Part shown: piece by piece, positions 4,782 to 10,318 of the stretch
Layout of the letters: each line of letters starts with the position of its first letter
Position numbering within the stretch: the first letter of the stretch is position 1
Origin: an uncultured Candidatus Saccharibacteria bacterium
GTDB lineage: Bacteria > Patescibacteriota > Minisyncoccia > UBA6257 > 2-01-FULL-56-20
Assembly: GCA_964637795.1 (NCBI GenBank)
Contig: CAZWWZ010000001.1
Coordinates: 1 to 28,694, forward strand
Length of the DNA: 28,694 bases
Reading direction: 5' to 3'
The notes under the pieces: generated by a model
Told to the model about the DNA's origin: nothing
Databases searched by the model: none
Seen by the model: the letters and a program-made list of their open reading frames with translations, nothing else
Program-made: the position numbers and the translations under genes

Positions 4782-5861
4782 CTATATGGCAAGCATATAT
4801 GATAATGCTGGTGTATCGGCAATTTCTCCCGATGAGTTCATTTGGCCGATAACACATCCATCGGTCAATGAGACAGCGGTGCTGCCTTGCATTCCGTTCG
4901 GTACTGCCCCTATGTTGGTTGTATCGTAATATCCTGACGTGCCAGTGATAACGCCCGTGAGGGTCTGGTTTGTCGAATTGATTGGCCACCCAAACACGGC
5001 GACGGAATCCCCAACTGATGGTCTTGTCACGCAATAATTTATCTTCTTCGCATAATTCGTGAGATAGCCATTCGGTGTAGCGATGTTGATCTGCGCATAA
5101 TCAATGTTTATATTGTTTGCGACTATAGGGCTTGTGCCATAGGCAGCAGTCGTTGCGTAAGATCCTACAGTGAAGGTTGAAAGGCCGCCCGCATAGAGAT
5201 TGGCACCGGCTGGGAATTGAATATCGCATGTAGCAGGAGCGAGAACTGAACCTGTGTACGAGGTATTTATAACACCACCCAAAACTGTGCTTATGAAATA
5301 AGGAGCATACGAACTGTTGTTATAGGAGTTGAGTATGCCGTTCGAGCTTTGCGAAAAAAGTACATCGCCATATCTGTTATACCAATCGCAGGTAACGAAG
5401 GCGAGTTGAGGCGCGAGTTCTGAGTATAGAGCACTTGCAGAATAAGTTTGCGGAATGGGCACCGATTGAGTCGGCGTATTTTGAGTGGAATTCTGATTTT
5501 CTTGATTACTCGTGGTTGGAGCAGGCTGACTCACTGGTGCGGAAACGTTCATAGAATTTAGGAAGGCTCTCGTTATCGAACCGCAATAGCCTGATGCCGG
5601 AGAGATGTTATTCGCGGTCTGAAGTTGCTCCAAGGCAGTTCGAGTGCCGCTTCCGAAGTAACCCGTCGGGGTAGAGACAGATGTCAGATAACCTTTATTG
5701 ATTAAAATTTGCTGTAGGGCGATCACATCTGGCCCAGTCGAGCCGATAGTGAGGTTTTGGTTGAATTGATATGACGAGCCAGTGGCCTGTGCACGTACAA
5801 ACGAGGTGCTCGAAAAAACGAGGACTGCAATTATTGGCAAAGCTGAAAGATATTTTTTCAT
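4782..5861 (-). CDS. secreted peptidoglycan-binding protein with a degenerate (inactive) trypsin-like domain
   Basis: Signal peptide; PG_binding_1 motif (NLTIGSTGPDVIALQQIL...GYFGSGTRTAL..LQ...GYCGSITRAFLN); C-terminus aligns with the 3747-4736 protease but His and Ser are lost. Confidence 0.75.
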   Translation of the reverse strand: MKKYLSALPIIAVLVFSSTSFVRAQATGSSYQFNQNLTIGSTGPDVIALQQILINKGYLTSVSTPTGYFGSGTRTALEQLQTANNISPASGYCGSITRAFLNSMNVSAPVSQPAPTTSNQENQNSTQNTPTQSVPIPQTYSASALYSELAPQLAFVTCDWYNRYGDVLFSQSSNGILNSYNNSSYAPYFISTVLGGVINTSYTGSVLAPATCDIQFPAGANLYAGGLSTFTVGSYATTAAYGTSPIVANNINIDYAQINIATPNGYLTNYAKKINYCVTRPSVGDSVAVFGWPINSTNQTLTGVITGTSGYYDTTNIGAVPNGMQGSTAVSLTDGCVIGQMNSSGEIADTPALSYMLAI

Positions 5862-5887: not shown

Positions 5888-6056
5888 GATGGCGTGGCGA
5901 TCGGCCCATCAACACAAAACACCACGCTGACCTGATGCCTTACGGCATCCATACCCTTTCGGATATGACATCTTGCGGAAGTAGGCCAAACGTGGTGTTT
6001 GGTATCCGCAAGATGATTTTTTGCGCCATGCCCCGATTACTCAGGGTTTAGGCGAC
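5888..6056 (-). ncRNA. candidate structured RNA leader (GNRA tetraloops, 11-nt receptor variant, loop-downstream pairing)
   Basis: Three GNRA-capped hairpins on the minus strand; CCUAAA/CAUGG internal loop; 11-bp stem 5969-5979/6005-6015 whose loop pairs with 5912-5932. Confidence 0.7.
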
Positions 6057-6162: not shown

Positions 6163-6891
6163 ATGACAATGACAATAGAGGAAAAATACGATAATGCCAT
6201 TCAGATGTTTCAAAGCTATTACGATGGCAAAAACGAATCATTGCGTATCTCAAGTTTTGTTCTTGAAGAAAATGGTTTTGGGGAAGACTTTTGGCAAATG
6301 CTTTGCCCTAGATTAGAAAAGGATGGAATTCTAAAAGAGTGGCCATCCTTTTTTTACAAAACAGGATATTTCAGAAATGAAAGGCAATTCGATCAACTGA
6401 TAAATGATTTTAATAAAACTTTTAATTATGCTTCTGAATTTAAGGATTTTGCCATTACGGAAAGGGAGAAAATACAAAAAGAAATAAACTCCATGGAGCA
6501 TGTTTATCCTTTTGTTACTGACGGGGAAAAACTCAATGCGGTATATAACAAAGTTATCCGCAAATCAAAAAATGTATTAGCGGAAAAAGTCATATCATTT
6601 GATGATAAAAGCGCGAGAATTCTAATCGGGGAAATTTCAATTCAGCTACCTCCTTTTCAAAATGAGCACTGTCTCTGTCGCGTTATTTTTAGATGTAAAA
6701 TCCACGAGCCGATTGATTGGTCGGTGGTCTACAAAGAAATGACTGGCGATATTGACGAGATTGCCGACAAAACTAAAAAACGTTCCGTGCAAGACACGAT
6801 GTATGCTGTGAATAATCGGGTCAAAAAAGAGGCGAATACTGACGATGCATTGATGTCATGGAGGGGTAAAAGTATAGCTCGAAATTTTTAG
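6163..6891 (+). CDS. putative regulator with C-terminal OmpR-like winged helix
   Basis: LCRVIF...IDWSVVYKEMTG...SVQDTMYAVNNRVK...LMSWRGKSIARN resembles an effector-type wHTH. Confidence 0.55.
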   Translation: MTMTIEEKYDNAIQMFQSYYDGKNESLRISSFVLEENGFGEDFWQMLCPRLEKDGILKEWPSFFYKTGYFRNERQFDQLINDFNKTFNYASEFKDFAITEREKIQKEINSMEHVYPFVTDGEKLNAVYNKVIRKSKNVLAEKVISFDDKSARILIGEISIQLPPFQNEHCLCRVIFRCKIHEPIDWSVVYKEMTGDIDEIADKTKKRSVQDTMYAVNNRVKKEANTDDALMSWRGKSIARNF

Positions 6892-6988: not shown

Positions 6989-7237
6989 ATGACTCTTCAA
7001 TTAAACGAAAATACCTTTTTCAAAACCACAGACCTCGCATTGGCGACGACTATTTCGCTTTCCTATCCGCTTGAAACCATAGATCGGGGGAATCGCAAGG
7101 CGCAATTTGTTTTCAAGCGAGATGTTGGGCTGGATGAATTGATCACAAGCTACTGGCGCAGGGAGCTAAAGGTCGAGCCGCAGGCTTACTACGACGCTCT
7201 GCGCGTCACAAAAGGGCAGCTCTACGAAAATCAATGA
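6989..7237 (+). CDS. DUF5659-like protein
   Basis: FKTTDLALATTISL-YPL..IDR...KAQFVFKR...YWRRELKVEPQAYYDAL..TK..LY pattern. Confidence 0.7.
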   Translation: MTLQLNENTFFKTTDLALATTISLSYPLETIDRGNRKAQFVFKRDVGLDELITSYWRRELKVEPQAYYDALRVTKGQLYENQ

Positions 7238-7443
7238 TCTCGTACACTGCTCTCCAGGAATTTAGAACTTTATGGCTTGAGGAATTTGGTGAACAGATTT
7301 CCGAGGAACAAGCCATGGAAATCGCGCCGAAACTCCTCAATCTTTTCAACCATATCTATCGGCCCGTAAAGAAAACATGGGTAGAGAGTTTAGAGCCGGA
7401 ATTAAAACAACAACCAAACGCTAATGAAAACACAAAACACTGA
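7234..7443 (+). CDS. small helical hypothetical protein of CPR integrative elements
   Basis: ATGA overlap with the upstream stop; ALQEFRTLWLEEFGEQISEEQAMEIA.KLLNLF..IYRP pattern. Confidence 0.7.
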   Translation: MISYTALQEFRTLWLEEFGEQISEEQAMEIAPKLLNLFNHIYRPVKKTWVESLEPELKQQPNANENTKH

Positions 7444-7687
7444 AATTCAAGCTACACGTCCGAGCGAATTTGATCTCTTAAAGAAACATCCTCGCCGCGC
7501 TCAGTGCTCAAAATGCGGTTCGAAGAAAAGCCATACCAATCCGATGGCCCGATGCTGGGAATGCAAAAGAAAATTCTGCTACGACCATATTTGGGGCGGG
7601 CAGATCAATGACAGTATGGGGCAGAATGAAGAAATTCGAGATATATGCGATTCCTGCAAAAAGGCGAAAGGATATAGAAACCTATGA
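7424..7687 (+). CDS. Cys/His-rich zinc-finger protein
   Basis: CSKC...CWEC...CYDH...CDSC; overlaps the upstream gene. Confidence 0.65.
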   Translation: MKTQNTEIQATRPSEFDLLKKHPRRAQCSKCGSKKSHTNPMARCWECKRKFCYDHIWGGQINDSMGQNEEIRDICDSCKKAKGYRNL

Positions 7688-7697
7688 AATAATCTTG

Positions 7698-7770
7698 GTT
7701 TCTGATGTTGGCTTCGGACACAAGACCGCCATGTCCTTGTCCGAGGCCAATATCAGAAACAGGACATGGC
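7698..7770 (+). promoter_or_regulatory. RNA switch controlling translation of the rep-like gene
   Basis: 23-bp stem 7698-7720/7738-7760 (2 G-U pairs); loop gccatgtcct (7728-7737) is the exact complement of aggacATGgc (7761-7770). Confidence 0.75.
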
Positions 7771-8254
7771 AATGGAGAAAAAAGAGATCAGTAATTTTCA
7801 GGTTAAATATGGGAGGCGTACGCTGTATTTTGGCTTCGTTCAAACTCCGAACCTCCTCATACAAAATAAAAAAGCACTTGGCCTGACAACGTCCGAACTC
7901 TTTTTATTGCAATATCTCATGTCATACGGATCAGCTCATGAAATCGCTGATTGGGTATATCCCTCGCTAAAGGAGATGTCGAAAATGACCGGATTATCAA
8001 CAGGGACCATCCACGCAGCAAAGGATGGACTGGTAAATAAAGGATTTATCGAGATCCTTAAAAAGGAAAATCCTTATGGGACGAATTATTACAATCTTTT
8101 CCCCATTAGAGAAAAGCTAGAACATATCGCCACGCGGAAAATAGAACAGCAATTCGTGAATAAAAAAATGAACCAGAAAAAATACGATGAACTTATGGGA
8201 GATACATCTACAAAGGTCGCTAAAAAGTTCTTTGAAACGAATGAGGATGTTTAA
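7766..8254 (+). CDS. DnaD-N/HTH_36-like replication initiator candidate
   Basis: PNLLIQNKKALGLTTSELFLLQYL...YPSLKEMSKMTGLSTGTIHAAKDGLVNKGFIEI. Confidence 0.55.
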   Translation: MAMEKKEISNFQVKYGRRTLYFGFVQTPNLLIQNKKALGLTTSELFLLQYLMSYGSAHEIADWVYPSLKEMSKMTGLSTGTIHAAKDGLVNKGFIEILKKENPYGTNYYNLFPIREKLEHIATRKIEQQFVNKKMNQKKYDELMGDTSTKVAKKFFETNEDV

Positions 8255-8357: not shown

Positions 8358-8385
8358 TTGATAAAGATAAACCATTTGTTATAAT
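8358..8385 (+). promoter_or_regulatory. sigma70 promoter of the recombinase transcript
   Basis: TTGATA (8358-8363)-N16-TATAAT (8380-8385) with extended TG (8377-8378); predicted TSS ~8391-8392. Confidence 0.75.
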
Positions 8386-8391
8386 GATTAT

Positions 8392-8522
8392 GTTGATCCG
8401 TGCAGAAACTTATTCCGAGAGGTTTTTTATTAGGCAATGCTCCCTTAAAGCGGCGGTTTCTGCCAGCATTGCCACTCCTTTCGGAGCGACTGTGCGGATC
8501 AACCAGAGACCGTCGCTTTAAG
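8392..8522 (+). ncRNA. candidate structured 5' leader of the recombinase mRNA
   Basis: 14-bp closing stem 8392-8405/8490-8503; 9-bp stem 8433-8441/8465-8473; loop 8444-8462 is complementary (19 bp, 2 G-U) to 8504-8522. Confidence 0.7.
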
Positions 8523-8533
8523 TTTCTAAAAAT

Positions 8534-10318
8534 ATGAAAAATCAAAACAGTGATGGTATTAGATATATCGCATATTCCCGCAAGAGCACGGAAGGAGAAG
8601 ATCGGCAGGTATTGTCCCTTGATGACCAAAAGCGTGAGATTGAGGAAATAATCCGGCGCGACGATCTTAAGGTTGTCGAAAGCTACCTCGGTACGGGCCA
8701 CGGCGAGAGCTTCTCGGCCCATAAACGCGGCAGACTAATCTTCGGCCATGTCATGCAAGAGATAGAATCCGGCAAGGCAAACGGCTTGCTCGTGTGGCAT
8801 CCGAACCGCATCGCCCGCAATGCCTTTGACGGAGGATTGGTCATTACTCTCATGGACGAGGGTAAACTTGCTGAGATCAGAACGCCGTATCGCACCTACC
8901 AAAACACGCCAGACGACAAATTCTTCTTGCAGCTTGAGTTTGGTATGGCCAAAAAATCATCCGATGATAATGGAGTTGCCGTTAAGCGCGGCCTAAAGAC
9001 AAAAGTGCAGATGGGCTGGTATCCATGCCGCGCTCCCCTCGGCTATCAGAACACCATCATCAAAGGCAAGGGCTTGAATGAGATCGAAAAAGACCCTGAA
9101 CGGTTCGATATCGTTAGGCGGATGTGGGATATGATGCTCACCGGCAACTACACGCCACCGCAGATTATGAGGATCGCCAACGAGGAATGGCATTTCAAAA
9201 CACGGCCCACAAAACGCCATAAAGGGCTAAAACCTTTGGGCCGAAGCAATCTCTATAAGATATTTACCAACCCCTTTTATTACGGCTGGTTCTCCTACGG
9301 CAGGCCAGCGCAACTCTATAAAGGCACGCACGAGCCGATGATCACCGAAGAGGAATTCGATCGCGTACAAAAAATTCTTGGCAAAGATGGCAAGCCGCGG
9401 CCGCAGACCCATCGTTTCGCCTTCACGGGATTGATGAGATGCGGGAATTGCGGAGCAATGATAACGGCTGAGGAGAAAATGAAGCGGCAACAGAACGGTA
9501 ACATCCATCACTACATTTACTATCACTGCACCAAACGGAAGGATGAAAACTGCACCGAAAAAATGGTCGAATTGAAGAACTTGGATGCGCAGATCGACGT
9601 GCTCGTAAAACACCTTGCCATTTCCGATAAATTCAAAGGCTGGGCCATTAAGTATCTCCACGAAATCCGACAGAACGAGGCAGTAAGTAATCAAGAGATA
9701 TTTGAGAGCAAACAGAAACAGCTTGCGCGGATCACCGACCAGCTTCAAAGCTTACTTTTGAAATACACGTCACCGGAGAACGCTAATGAGGAGATTATGA
9801 CCGCGCAGGAGCTTCAGACGCTCAAGGGCGGCCTCTTAAAACAGAAATCTGCCCTTGAGAACGATGTTGCCACGCAAGGCAAGGCCATTGAGGAATGGGT
9901 TACATTAAGTGAACGAACATTCAACTTCGCCCGCTATGCCAAGATATGGTTCGACAATGGCACGATGGACACGAAACGGGCCGTCTTAGCAGCCCTCGGT
10001 TCGAACCTCCTTATCAAAGACCAAAAACTCAACGTAGAGCTGTATCCTTTCTATCAAGTGATCTTCGACAACGTCGAAAAGGTGGAAAAAGAATTACTCA
10101 AGGTTCGAACCTCGGAAAATATAACGAACAAAAGGCAAATCGCCGCAATTTTGGCGAAATGTCCTACCTTGCGGAGGCGGAAGGATTCGAACCTTCGAGG
10201 GGATTTCTCCCCTAACATCTTAGCAGGATGCTGCCTTCAGCCACTCGGCCACGCCTCCATGTCGAACATTCCGAAGTCTAACGGAAAAACGCCATCTTTT
10301 CAATGCTCCAAGTTCTGA
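8534..10318 (+). CDS. large serine recombinase (resolvase + recombinase + Zn-ribbon + coiled coil); 3' end reads antisense through tRNA-Ser
   Basis: YSRKSTE catalytic motif, HPNRIARN, GWYPCRAPLGY, GTHEPMIT.EEFDRVQ, FTGLMRCGNCG...YYHC. Confidence 0.95.
   Translation: MKNQNSDGIRYIAYSRKSTEGEDRQVLSLDDQKREIEEIIRRDDLKVVESYLGTGHGESFSAHKRGRLIFGHVMQEIESGKANGLLVWHPNRIARNAFDGGLVITLMDEGKLAEIRTPYRTYQNTPDDKFFLQLEFGMAKKSSDDNGVAVKRGLKTKVQMGWYPCRAPLGYQNTIIKGKGLNEIEKDPERFDIVRRMWDMMLTGNYTPPQIMRIANEEWHFKTRPTKRHKGLKPLGRSNLYKIFTNPFYYGWFSYGRPAQLYKGTHEPMITEEEFDRVQKILGKDGKPRPQTHRFAFTGLMRCGNCGAMITAEEKMKRQQNGNIHHYIYYHCTKRKDENCTEKMVELKNLDAQIDVLVKHLAISDKFKGWAIKYLHEIRQNEAVSNQEIFESKQKQLARITDQLQSLLLKYTSPENANEEIMTAQELQTLKGGLLKQKSALENDVATQGKAIEEWVTLSERTFNFARYAKIWFDNGTMDTKRAVLAALGSNLLIKDQKLNVELYPFYQVIFDNVEKVEKELLKVRTSENITNKRQIAAILAKCPTLRRRKDSNLRGDFSPNILAGCCLQPLGHASMSNIPKSNGKTPSFQCSKF
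10172..10258 (-). tRNA. tRNA-Ser(GCT)
   Basis: Acceptor GGAGGCG/CGCCTCC, G discriminator, anticodon loop CT-GCT-AA, long variable arm, TTCGAAT T-loop; no encoded CCA. Confidence 0.97.
10275..10303 (-). promoter_or_regulatory. tRNA-Ser promoter
   Basis: TTGAAA-N17-TAGACT on the minus strand. Confidence 0.6.

Follow-up and report, generated by a model that had tools for sequence, protein, structure and literature searches.

A hairpin loop complementary to the adjoining ribosome-binding region: a candidate two-state mRNA leader in a serine-recombinase element of an uncultured saccharibacterium

The window analysed here is a stretch of 28,694 nucleotides (nt) from an uncultured Candidatus Saccharibacteria bacterium (GenBank assembly GCA_964637795.1, contig CAZWWZ010000001.1, positions 1 to 28,694 of the forward (+) strand); between the stop codon of a zinc-ribbon gene and the start codon of a gene for a protein with a DnaD N-terminal-type (DnaD-N-like) winged helix it contains a long hairpin, the loop of which is the exact complement of the sequence directly following the stem. 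Comparison with related elements showed that the stem and the loop/flank helix are both selected pairings of the + strand, that the two are mutually exclusive, and that the downstream gene starts at ATG 7772. The region is proposed to be a cis-acting leader of the + strand messenger RNA (mRNA) that adopts two states and tunes the translation of the DnaD-N-like gene, a proposal that is given an even chance of being correct.

Two conserved and mutually exclusive pairings

A first-pass annotation of the window, based on its sequence, had described a 23-bp stem with a 17-nt loop, a loop 10-mer perfectly complementary to a segment at the stem base, and the stop codon of the zinc-ribbon open reading frame (ORF) 10 nt 5' of the stem; all three features were recovered. 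The inverted-repeat search returned arms of 23 nt with 21 Watson-Crick pairs (91%) and two G-U pairs, separated by 17 nt (7721-7737, CAAGACCGCCATGTCCT, i.e. CAAGACCGCCAUGUCCU); when positions 7680-7800 were folded as RNA, this hairpin was the minimum free energy (MFE) structure (-47.7 kcal/mol, z = -6.0; none of 200 shuffled sequences was as stable). The ten 3'-most nt of the loop (GCCATGTCCT, segment b', 7728-7737) are in all ten positions the reverse complement of AGGACATGGC (segment b, 7761-7770), which begins at the first base 3' of the stem. Among 200,000 shuffles that preserved composition, 14 contained an uninterrupted complement of this length to the loop within the 20 nt following the stem (approximately 7e-5). 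According to the MFE fold, the helix would further be prolonged by a base extension of 4-5 bp that covers the Shine-Dalgarno (SD)-like AGGA in the hairpin state (for coordinates see Table 1).

Relatives were found through homologues of the DnaD-N-like and zinc-ribbon proteins, on metagenome contigs with the same gene order; they supplied five more distinct versions of the hairpin (loci L001/L002, L007-L010, L003-L006, L041 and L043), i.e. six variants including the window, to which all counts out of six refer. The b':b pairing was 10/10 Watson-Crick in all of these despite three different sequence versions (see Table 1), which are linked by six different compensatory double changes; the pairing of the loop with the flank is thus under selection. 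In the MAFFT alignment, which sets L043 one column out of register in the loop/flank helix, 98% of the cells were paired and 10 pairs were changed on both sides, six of them in the stem and four in the loop/flank helix (six with L043 in register). None of 500 shuffled controls was as good, and partners slid against each other were paired in 32-45%. The base extension is invariant in sequence, and covariation is uninformative for this part. The hairpin as a whole is better conserved than the adjacent coding DNA (e.g. 90% versus 71-73% identity between the window and L001), and DNA contigs from four wetland/peat sequencing runs contained no variants or joints within it.

The paired cells that depart from Watson-Crick geometry are all G-U on the + strand (15 cells at eight stem positions), with no A-C among them; L001 and L007 contain one U-U mismatch in the stem. 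The + strand hairpin is the more stable one in all six variants, the minus (-) strand counterpart being weaker by 0.1-10.9 kcal/mol and containing A-C mismatches. Since the wobble pairs are G-U on the + strand only, the selected form is most readily understood as + strand RNA; the one-sided wobbles and the stabler + strand fold argue against both a duplex-DNA protein site and an RNA of the - strand. The nucleic acid involved is presumably mRNA rather than + strand single-stranded DNA (ssDNA).

The segments follow each other in the order A (5' arm), L1, b', A' (3' arm) and b, with 0 nt at the b'/A' and A'/b junctions in all six variants, whereas L1 varies between 6 and 7 nt (consensus YAAGRY). 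Since an H-type pseudoknot formed on the intact stem would need a loop 3 of 0 nt to cross 23 bp, the full stem and the b':b helix exclude each other; this topological point had been made in the first-pass annotation and is borne out.

The hairpin is a single-copy feature. Its arms do not recur in the window, unlike dispersed repeats of the repetitive extragenic palindromic (REP) or miniature inverted-repeat transposable element (MITE) type, and further copies of the 10-mer that could serve as targets in trans were not found there above chance. With a covariance model of the six versions, exactly one copy was detected per related element and none elsewhere. In Rfam 15 there were no matches at the gathering threshold, and at E <= 10 solely generic hairpin matches to microRNA precursor models were obtained (16-23 bits compared with cut-offs of 70-180). 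The structure was not recognised as an intrinsic terminator: AGGACAUGGCAAUGG follows the stem on the + strand, and no terminator was called at this place by the scan.

The downstream gene in L041 and L043 codes for an unrelated 272-274-aa (amino acid) protein of no recognised family; since the hairpin is kept nevertheless, it is a property of the gene junction that follows the zinc ribbon, not the operator of one particular protein. L041 and the window share the same b sequence. In every one of the six variants, the upstream ORF terminates 0-5 nt short of the helix base; five of them keep the spacer AAUAA, which L043 lacks, its stop lying directly against the helix. The hairpin is missing from the more distant zinc-ribbon loci (L042, L044, L045, L047, L050, L051 and L052), in three of which (L044, L045 and L050) the stop of the zinc-ribbon gene adjoins or overlaps the following start. 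The hairpin was likewise absent from a second DnaD_N subfamily retrieved by a metagenome scan with the DnaD_N alignment. A protein scan of genome contigs for more homologues, a search of the zinc-ribbon alignment against viral contigs and phages, and a structured-pattern scan of viral contigs returned no matches. DNA-pattern searches gave 22 matches in genomes and a single one in viral contigs; the former were rejected because their number is about that estimated by chance for a pattern of 17 fixed bases over 596 Gb, the latter on inspection.

Start codon, translational coupling and the proposed switch

ATG 7772 was assigned as the start codon of the downstream gene: it is the only start kept in all six variants, is positioned 6-7 nt after AGGA/AGGG, yields an N-terminus (MEK(K)E) that is conserved in the homologues, and agrees with the existing gene call for the window (160 aa). 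The first-pass annotation had regarded the loop as the exact complement of both the ribosome-binding site (RBS) and a start codon at 7766. This ATG sits 1 nt after AGGA, and L003 and L043 have ACG in its place (a GTG close by in L043 is out of frame); because of this spacing and the missing conservation, the loop is to be regarded as an anti-RBS but not as an anti-start, its complement spanning the SD-like AGGA/AGGG plus the spacer, positions -11 to -2 relative to ATG 7772. A true start elsewhere, e.g. at 7772, together with loop mutations of no effect, had been named as the finding that would speak against a switch: the start is indeed 7772, yet the loop still masks the RBS. Public gene calls of the relatives differ in this respect: those of L003 (5001-5564; P0003, 187 aa) and L043 (2630-3529, 299 aa) begin inside or before the hairpin, and those of P0002 and P0004 (beginning 'MAMEKE') at the non-conserved ATG; these calls carry false N-terminal extensions, the two longer ones (P0003 and the 299-aa call) running on through the hairpin.

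The stem is divided into two unequal halves: the lower 12 bp are AU/GU-rich (21-42% GC), the upper 11 bp contain 59-82% GC (all six variants). Energies of -16.7 to -20.7 kcal/mol for the lower stem compare with -21.5 to -22.9 kcal/mol for the stacking of b':b, again in all six. If the lower half is opened, a pseudoknot can be drawn with a stem 1 (S1) of 11 bp, an L1 of 6-7 nt, a stem 2 (S2) of 10 bp and a loop 3 (L3) of 12 nt (5-7 A); according to these models, its geometry is sterically reasonable and the exchanged helices are matched in energy. With the 5' arm made unavailable in silico, the b':b helix with A' as its loop became the MFE structure of every variant, at -19 to -25 kcal/mol, with a probability of AGGA being unpaired of at most 0.03 throughout. 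The predicted match between lower stem and loop/RBS helix looks like that of a poised switch that requires an input.

With respect to the upstream ribosome, the zinc-ribbon stop codon (TGA 7685-7687) is located 84 nt upstream of the start in sequence and at the helix base in the fold, a spacing conserved in all six variants; in the window it precedes the base extension by 5 nt. Blocking the 5' flank in silico raised the probability of AGGA being unpaired from 0.16 to 0.94 in the window; with flank and extension blocked, it rose from 0.16-0.83 to 0.94-1.0 in four of the six variants. Ordinary translational coupling is supported by these results and by the adjoining or overlapping stop and start of the hairpin-less relatives: the hairpin places the stop (10 nt from the stem) beside the start (11 nt), and termination would free AGGA; coupling probably occurs. 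However, termination does not in itself explain the formation of b':b. The terminating ribosome that the first-pass annotation had suggested as the trigger is thus retained as a means to free AGGA from the base extension, whereas a role in driving the loop pairing was not supported.

The proposed mechanism comprises two states. In state 1 (ON), the full 23-bp hairpin, being the first structure to fold and the ground state, would juxtapose the zinc-ribbon stop and the next start codon at the helix base and would be competent for coupling: only the weak 4-5 bp base extension would lie over AGGA, and a ribosome terminating there could open it and re-initiate, i.e. state 1 would amount to ordinary translational coupling across a hairpin. 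In state 2, presumably the OFF state, the GC-rich upper stem would be retained and the AU-rich lower 12 bp exchanged for the 10-bp helix 7728-7737/7761-7770, resulting in the above-mentioned H-type pseudoknot (S1 of about 11 bp) with an A-rich L3; positions -11 to -2 would be base-paired and initiation blocked. If the whole 5' arm were captured, a plain b'-A'-b hairpin would be the alternative form of state 2. As best guesses, the transition may be triggered by events at the lower 5' arm just past the stop codon or by a protein that stabilises the pseudoknot, in the way S15 acts on the rpsO mRNA; a trans-acting RNA is a further candidate. The zinc-ribbon protein and the DnaD-N-like protein could serve as such an effector, both of them being guesses only. 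Two further possibilities were rejected: a conserved upstream partner for the 5' arm, comparable to 'segment 1' of an attenuator, was not supported by RNAduplex (-13.6 to -24.7 kcal/mol), the positions being inconsistent, and for translation through the hairpin (readthrough, frameshift or a mini-ORF in the loop) frames and stops were not conserved between variants.

Several points weigh against this proposal. When a generic pseudoknot penalty is applied, the pseudoknot is placed about 8 kcal/mol above the bare hairpin and higher once the base extension is included (approximately 8-14 kcal/mol above the full hairpin with its extension), so that an input is required for state 2 to form. With the stop codon occupying its A site, a ribosome has an entry channel extending to approximately +11 to +15 from the P-site codon, which in the window corresponds to about 7693-7697; by its usual footprint the terminating ribosome would reach only about 7693-7700, i.e. 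the helix base and its extension, and not the 23-bp stem (with the stop directly at the helix, as in L043, a few additional pairs would be opened). Blocking the flank frees AGGA incompletely in L003 and L041. An SD-like motif was present within 25 nt upstream of the start in only about 4 of the 27 window genes, most leaders being A/T-rich; since the host seldom uses such motifs, a functional SD role of AGGA can be suggested at best. The two clearest AGGA motifs of the window both belong to the mobile element (before 6163 and before 7772). The comparison comprises six variants only, which belong to one narrow clade and contain the b/b' pair in three versions, and G-T wobbles are also tolerated in ssDNA hairpins, which leaves room for + strand ssDNA as the paired form. 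Finally, a search for RNA sequencing runs carrying this sequence found none.

Known leaders and alternative explanations

In the rpsO leader of Escherichia coli, a stem-loop is in equilibrium with a pseudoknot in which the loop pairs near the RBS; the pseudoknot is the repressed form, is stabilised by S15 and traps the 30S subunit, the stems being short and an upstream ORF missing. In the present case, half of a 23-bp stem has to open, and an S15-like effector is known for rpsO only. In ermC and cat attenuation and in pT181/pSK41 refolding, mutually exclusive helices set the access to an RBS or a terminator, and the capture of an upstream pre-emptor flips the fold. These attenuators consist of four segments (1:2/3:4 versus 2:3), whereas here the repressing b':b helix encloses the pre-empted arm as its loop, similar to a molecular beacon, and the 5' arm lacks a conserved upstream 'segment 1' partner. 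For mRNAs of the hok/sok type, covariation likewise backs two incompatible pairings that govern RBS access; their refolding is triggered by 3' processing and involves long-range pairing of 5' and 3' regions, whereas neither a toxin gene nor a processing signal is present here.

The replication leaders of IncI-alpha and IncB plasmids (ColIb-P9 repY-repZ and pMU720 repB-repA) resemble the present region in three respects (PMC8053102): an upstream ORF ends beside the start codon of a replication-type gene, a terminating ribosome can open the helix containing the RBS, and an upstream hairpin loop is complementary to a sequence of the RBS region. The pseudoknot of these plasmids pairs beside the SD and not over it, and activates translation; its partners are connected through a linker that is long and flexible, and the loop is contested by an antisense RNA (PMC8053102). 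In contrast, the complement described here covers the SD-like motif plus spacer and would repress, so that it does not correspond to an activator pseudoknot; with a linker of zero length, part of the stem must melt; a promoter for an antisense RNA was not found; and the downstream gene encodes a winged helix-turn-helix protein of the DnaD-N type in an integrative element next to a tRNA gene instead of RepZ/RepA on a plasmid. In the tap-repA leader of the IncFII plasmid R1, a structure over the rep RBS opens only if a small upstream ORF is translated (PMC8053102), but stop and start are adjacent, a long hairpin between them and a loop complement are missing, and control is exerted by the CopA antisense RNA. 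The logic as such resembles that of rep leaders, rpsO and attenuators; what appears to differ is the repressing helix nested round one stem arm with junctions of zero length, an arrangement supported by covariation in six sequences of one clade.

It is improbable that the ribosome terminating on the zinc-ribbon ORF itself unzips the stem base, upon which the loop would pair with the SD-like motif and ATG 7766 in a leader-peptide switch. The distance of the stop to the helix base (0-5 nt in all variants) and the overlapping upstream ORFs, which suggest coupling, would fit such a trigger, and the opening of about 8-10 weak lower pairs would make the pseudoknot sterically possible and bring it, by a crude estimate, within a few kcal/mol of the base-open hairpin. 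A stop-bound ribosome with its usual footprint would, however, open at most the 4-5 bp extension and a few stem pairs and not 8-12; ATG 7766, 1 nt from AGGA, is not conserved and the start is 7772; and upstream translation would close the RBS, the opposite of the leader-peptide coupling in IncI-alpha, IncB and IncFII. To a like degree improbable is an action in trans, in which the stable hairpin, as a decay or processing product or on other copies of the mRNA, pairs with the RBS of other molecules and exerts dose-dependent negative feedback: the full hairpin forbids b':b in cis but not in trans, the 17-nt loop exposes the 10-mer, a hairpin of about -40 kcal/mol would stop exonucleases, and the covariation would be explained without stem melting. 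The zero-nucleotide junctions and the matched energies of lower stem and S2 would be left unexplained, bimolecular pairing at mRNA-level concentrations would be slow unless the fragment accumulates, and the search of RNA runs gave no sign of such a species.

Less probable still is control by a countertranscript, i.e. a - strand RNA that ends at the hairpin, binds the leader and controls its refolding, as in IncI-alpha/IncB, pT181 and pSK41. The - strand hairpin is followed by an interrupted U-rich tail in all six variants (e.g. CAAGUUAUUUUAUG in L041), the conserved YAAG of the loop corresponds to CUUR on the - strand, which fits the YUNR motif of antisense loops, and antisense control is the commonest logic of rep leaders (PMC8053102). 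Against an antisense RNA over the hairpin, which the first-pass annotation had proposed to look for, speak the following points: neither the promoter scan nor inspection revealed a sigma-70-like promoter on the - strand near 7770-7850, the A-C mismatches and weaker fold on that strand indicate selection on the + strand, and a full-length antisense RNA would cover b' as well and free the RBS. A static element (RNase III site, mRNA stabiliser or coupling spacer) with a functionless loop/RBS complement has little to recommend it, although 23-27 bp would suffice for RNase III and the hairpin alone accounts for the proximity of stop and start: the complement has its low chance expectation (about 7e-5) even within one sequence, and six compensatory double changes hold b':b at 10/10 in three versions. 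The least probable explanation is a role at the DNA level, either as a + strand ssDNA hairpin (initiation or origin signal) or as nested inverted repeats for a dimeric protein. The neighbourhood of a DnaD-N-type gene would suit it, inverted half-sites covary too, and ssDNA tolerates G-T; the one-strand wobbles, however, disfavour a duplex-DNA binding site, b is the same in L041 and the window in spite of unrelated downstream proteins, the hairpin keeps a fixed register to both stop and start codons, and the element family possesses an integrase but no recognisable rolling-circle Rep.

A more far-reaching form of the proposed two-state leader would be a self-contained mRNA switch of new architecture, in which an anti-RBS loop and a matched AU-rich lower half sense ribosome traffic at the stop codon or the zinc-ribbon or DnaD-like protein, and which is conserved in an undescribed family of serine-recombinase elements with a LOOT RNA; in this complete form the proposal is doubtful. 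If the two-state leader is confirmed, it would represent a new compact RNA gate on translation with competing helices tuned to equal strength, originating from mobile elements of uncultivated wetland bacteria that seldom use Shine-Dalgarno motifs and in which gene regulation is barely known; it would also define a single element family by the combination of a replication or regulator gene, an orphan LOOT RNA and a serine integrase. The candidate of approximately 90 nt makes clear predictions for compensatory mutations, and its design close to a molecular beacon may be of interest for synthetic riboregulators.

The mobile element and its surroundings

Table 1. Features of the hairpin region and of the surrounding element (window coordinates unless a locus is named)
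Feature	Position or locus	Strand	Remarks
5' arm (A)	7698-7720	+	inverted repeat; lower half 7698-7709 AU/GU-rich, upper half 7710-7720 GC-rich
Loop segment L1	7721-7727	+	CAAGACC; single-stranded in both states; expected to span the deep groove of the loop/RBS helix if a pseudoknot forms
Anti-RBS (b')	7728-7737	+	GCCAUGUCCU; 3' portion of the loop, abuts the 3' arm
3' arm (A')	7738-7760	+	inverted repeat; lower half 7749-7760 = AAUAUCAGAAAC, A-rich; candidate pseudoknot loop 3
RBS segment (b)	7761-7770	+	AGGACAUGGC; SD-like AGGA 7761-7764 plus spacer; -11 to -2 relative to the start codon
Spacer	7688-7692	+	AAUAA; between stop codon and helix base
Base extension, 5' strand	7693-7697	+	UCUUG; predicted to pair with CAGGA 7760-7764
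Loop b' / flank b	window, L001, L007, L041	+	GCCATGTCCT / AGGACATGGC
Loop b' / flank b	L003	+	GTCGTGCCCT / AGGGCACGAC
Loop b' / flank b	L043	+	CGCACGTCCT / AGGACGTGCG
Upstream zinc-ribbon ORF, 87 aa	7424-7687	+	TGA 7685-7687; from the ORF list
Downstream gene, 160 aa	7772-8254	+	DnaD N-terminal-type winged helix; start ATG 7772
Large serine recombinase	8534-10318	+	3' end runs over tRNA-Ser 10171-10258 (- strand)
LOOT RNA (RF03000)	5934-6054	-	divergent from the operon
LOOT RNA in relatives	L001 891-1007; L003 3483-3598; L005 2263-2378; L007 3845-3959	-	strand relative to the operon
LOOT RNA in relatives	L008 2554-2668; L041 63-186; L042 2682-2809	-	strand relative to the operon

The hairpin is embedded in an operon of the order 6163-6891, 6989-7237 (DUF5659), 7234-7443, 7424-7687 (zinc ribbon), hairpin and 7772-8254. 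The zinc-ribbon ORF closes a chain of overlapping ORFs (from 6989-7237 onwards) that are apparently coupled to each other, as judged from their overlaps; its product has 46 homologues with a conserved Cys pattern and only weak matches to Pfam Zn-finger families. The product of the downstream gene matches Pfam PF21984 (1.4e-10) and, among the PHROG families, DnaD-like loaders and N-terminal domains of phage replication initiators; in the PDB, the best match was 2vn2 (chromosome replication initiation protein, E = 1.4e-4), followed by 2v79 (DnaD), whereas close homologues of the 160-aa protein are named MarR/GntR-type regulators in some sources. A role of the DnaD-N-type protein in replication is no more than plausible. 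The label 'Rep' given by the first-pass annotation is accordingly not supported as such, the 160-aa protein consisting only of a DnaD-N-terminal-type winged helix, and two relatives carry the unrelated 272-274-aa protein at this position; in contrast to the plasmid rep genes named there as a parallel, the hairpin is part of an integrated serine-recombinase element.

The recombinase ORF runs antisense through the whole tRNA-Ser gene, and its family match stops near residue 530 (approximately position 10124); the last 60 or so codons are probably host or attachment (att)-site sequence. A tRNA gene also follows the recombinase in L003, L005 and L007, and in L047 a tRNA gene overlaps the recombinase 3' end. 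The att-site repeat search found no significant second copy of tRNA-Ser, or of a tRNA end, that would mark the other element boundary. The LOOT RNA, an orphan small-RNA motif of Rfam, is encoded upstream of the operon and divergently from it in every sufficiently long relative (eight loci), and because of this companionship appears to be a component of the integrative element family. L042 (4001-6436) represents a decaying relative with neither the hairpin nor the DnaD-like gene; its zinc-ribbon gene carries a frameshift close to the 3' end, and its recombinase is split into three short ORFs.

A second structured leader of about 130 nt is located directly 5' of the recombinase start in the window (8388-8530, + strand) and in L047 (3243-3378); in the window it is preceded by a strong promoter-like site (TTGATA-16-TATAAT, 8358-8385). 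Between the window and L047, whose recombinases share only 24% identity, compensatory changes affect 6 of the 33 predicted pairs, and a pseudoknot-like pairing of 8444-8462 with 8504-8522 also covaries. This leader has no Rfam matches, and its structure is absent from L001, L003 and L007. Just past its recombinase and near tRNA genes, L047 shows a match to a group I intron (5174-5399, + strand; 57.9 bits). Elsewhere in the window, a PemK/MazF-like toxin gene (442-891, - strand) adjoins that of a SocA/Panacea-domain antitoxin (899-1516, - strand), and host genes (gyrB, ftsK, nusG and a sortase gene) are found further along.

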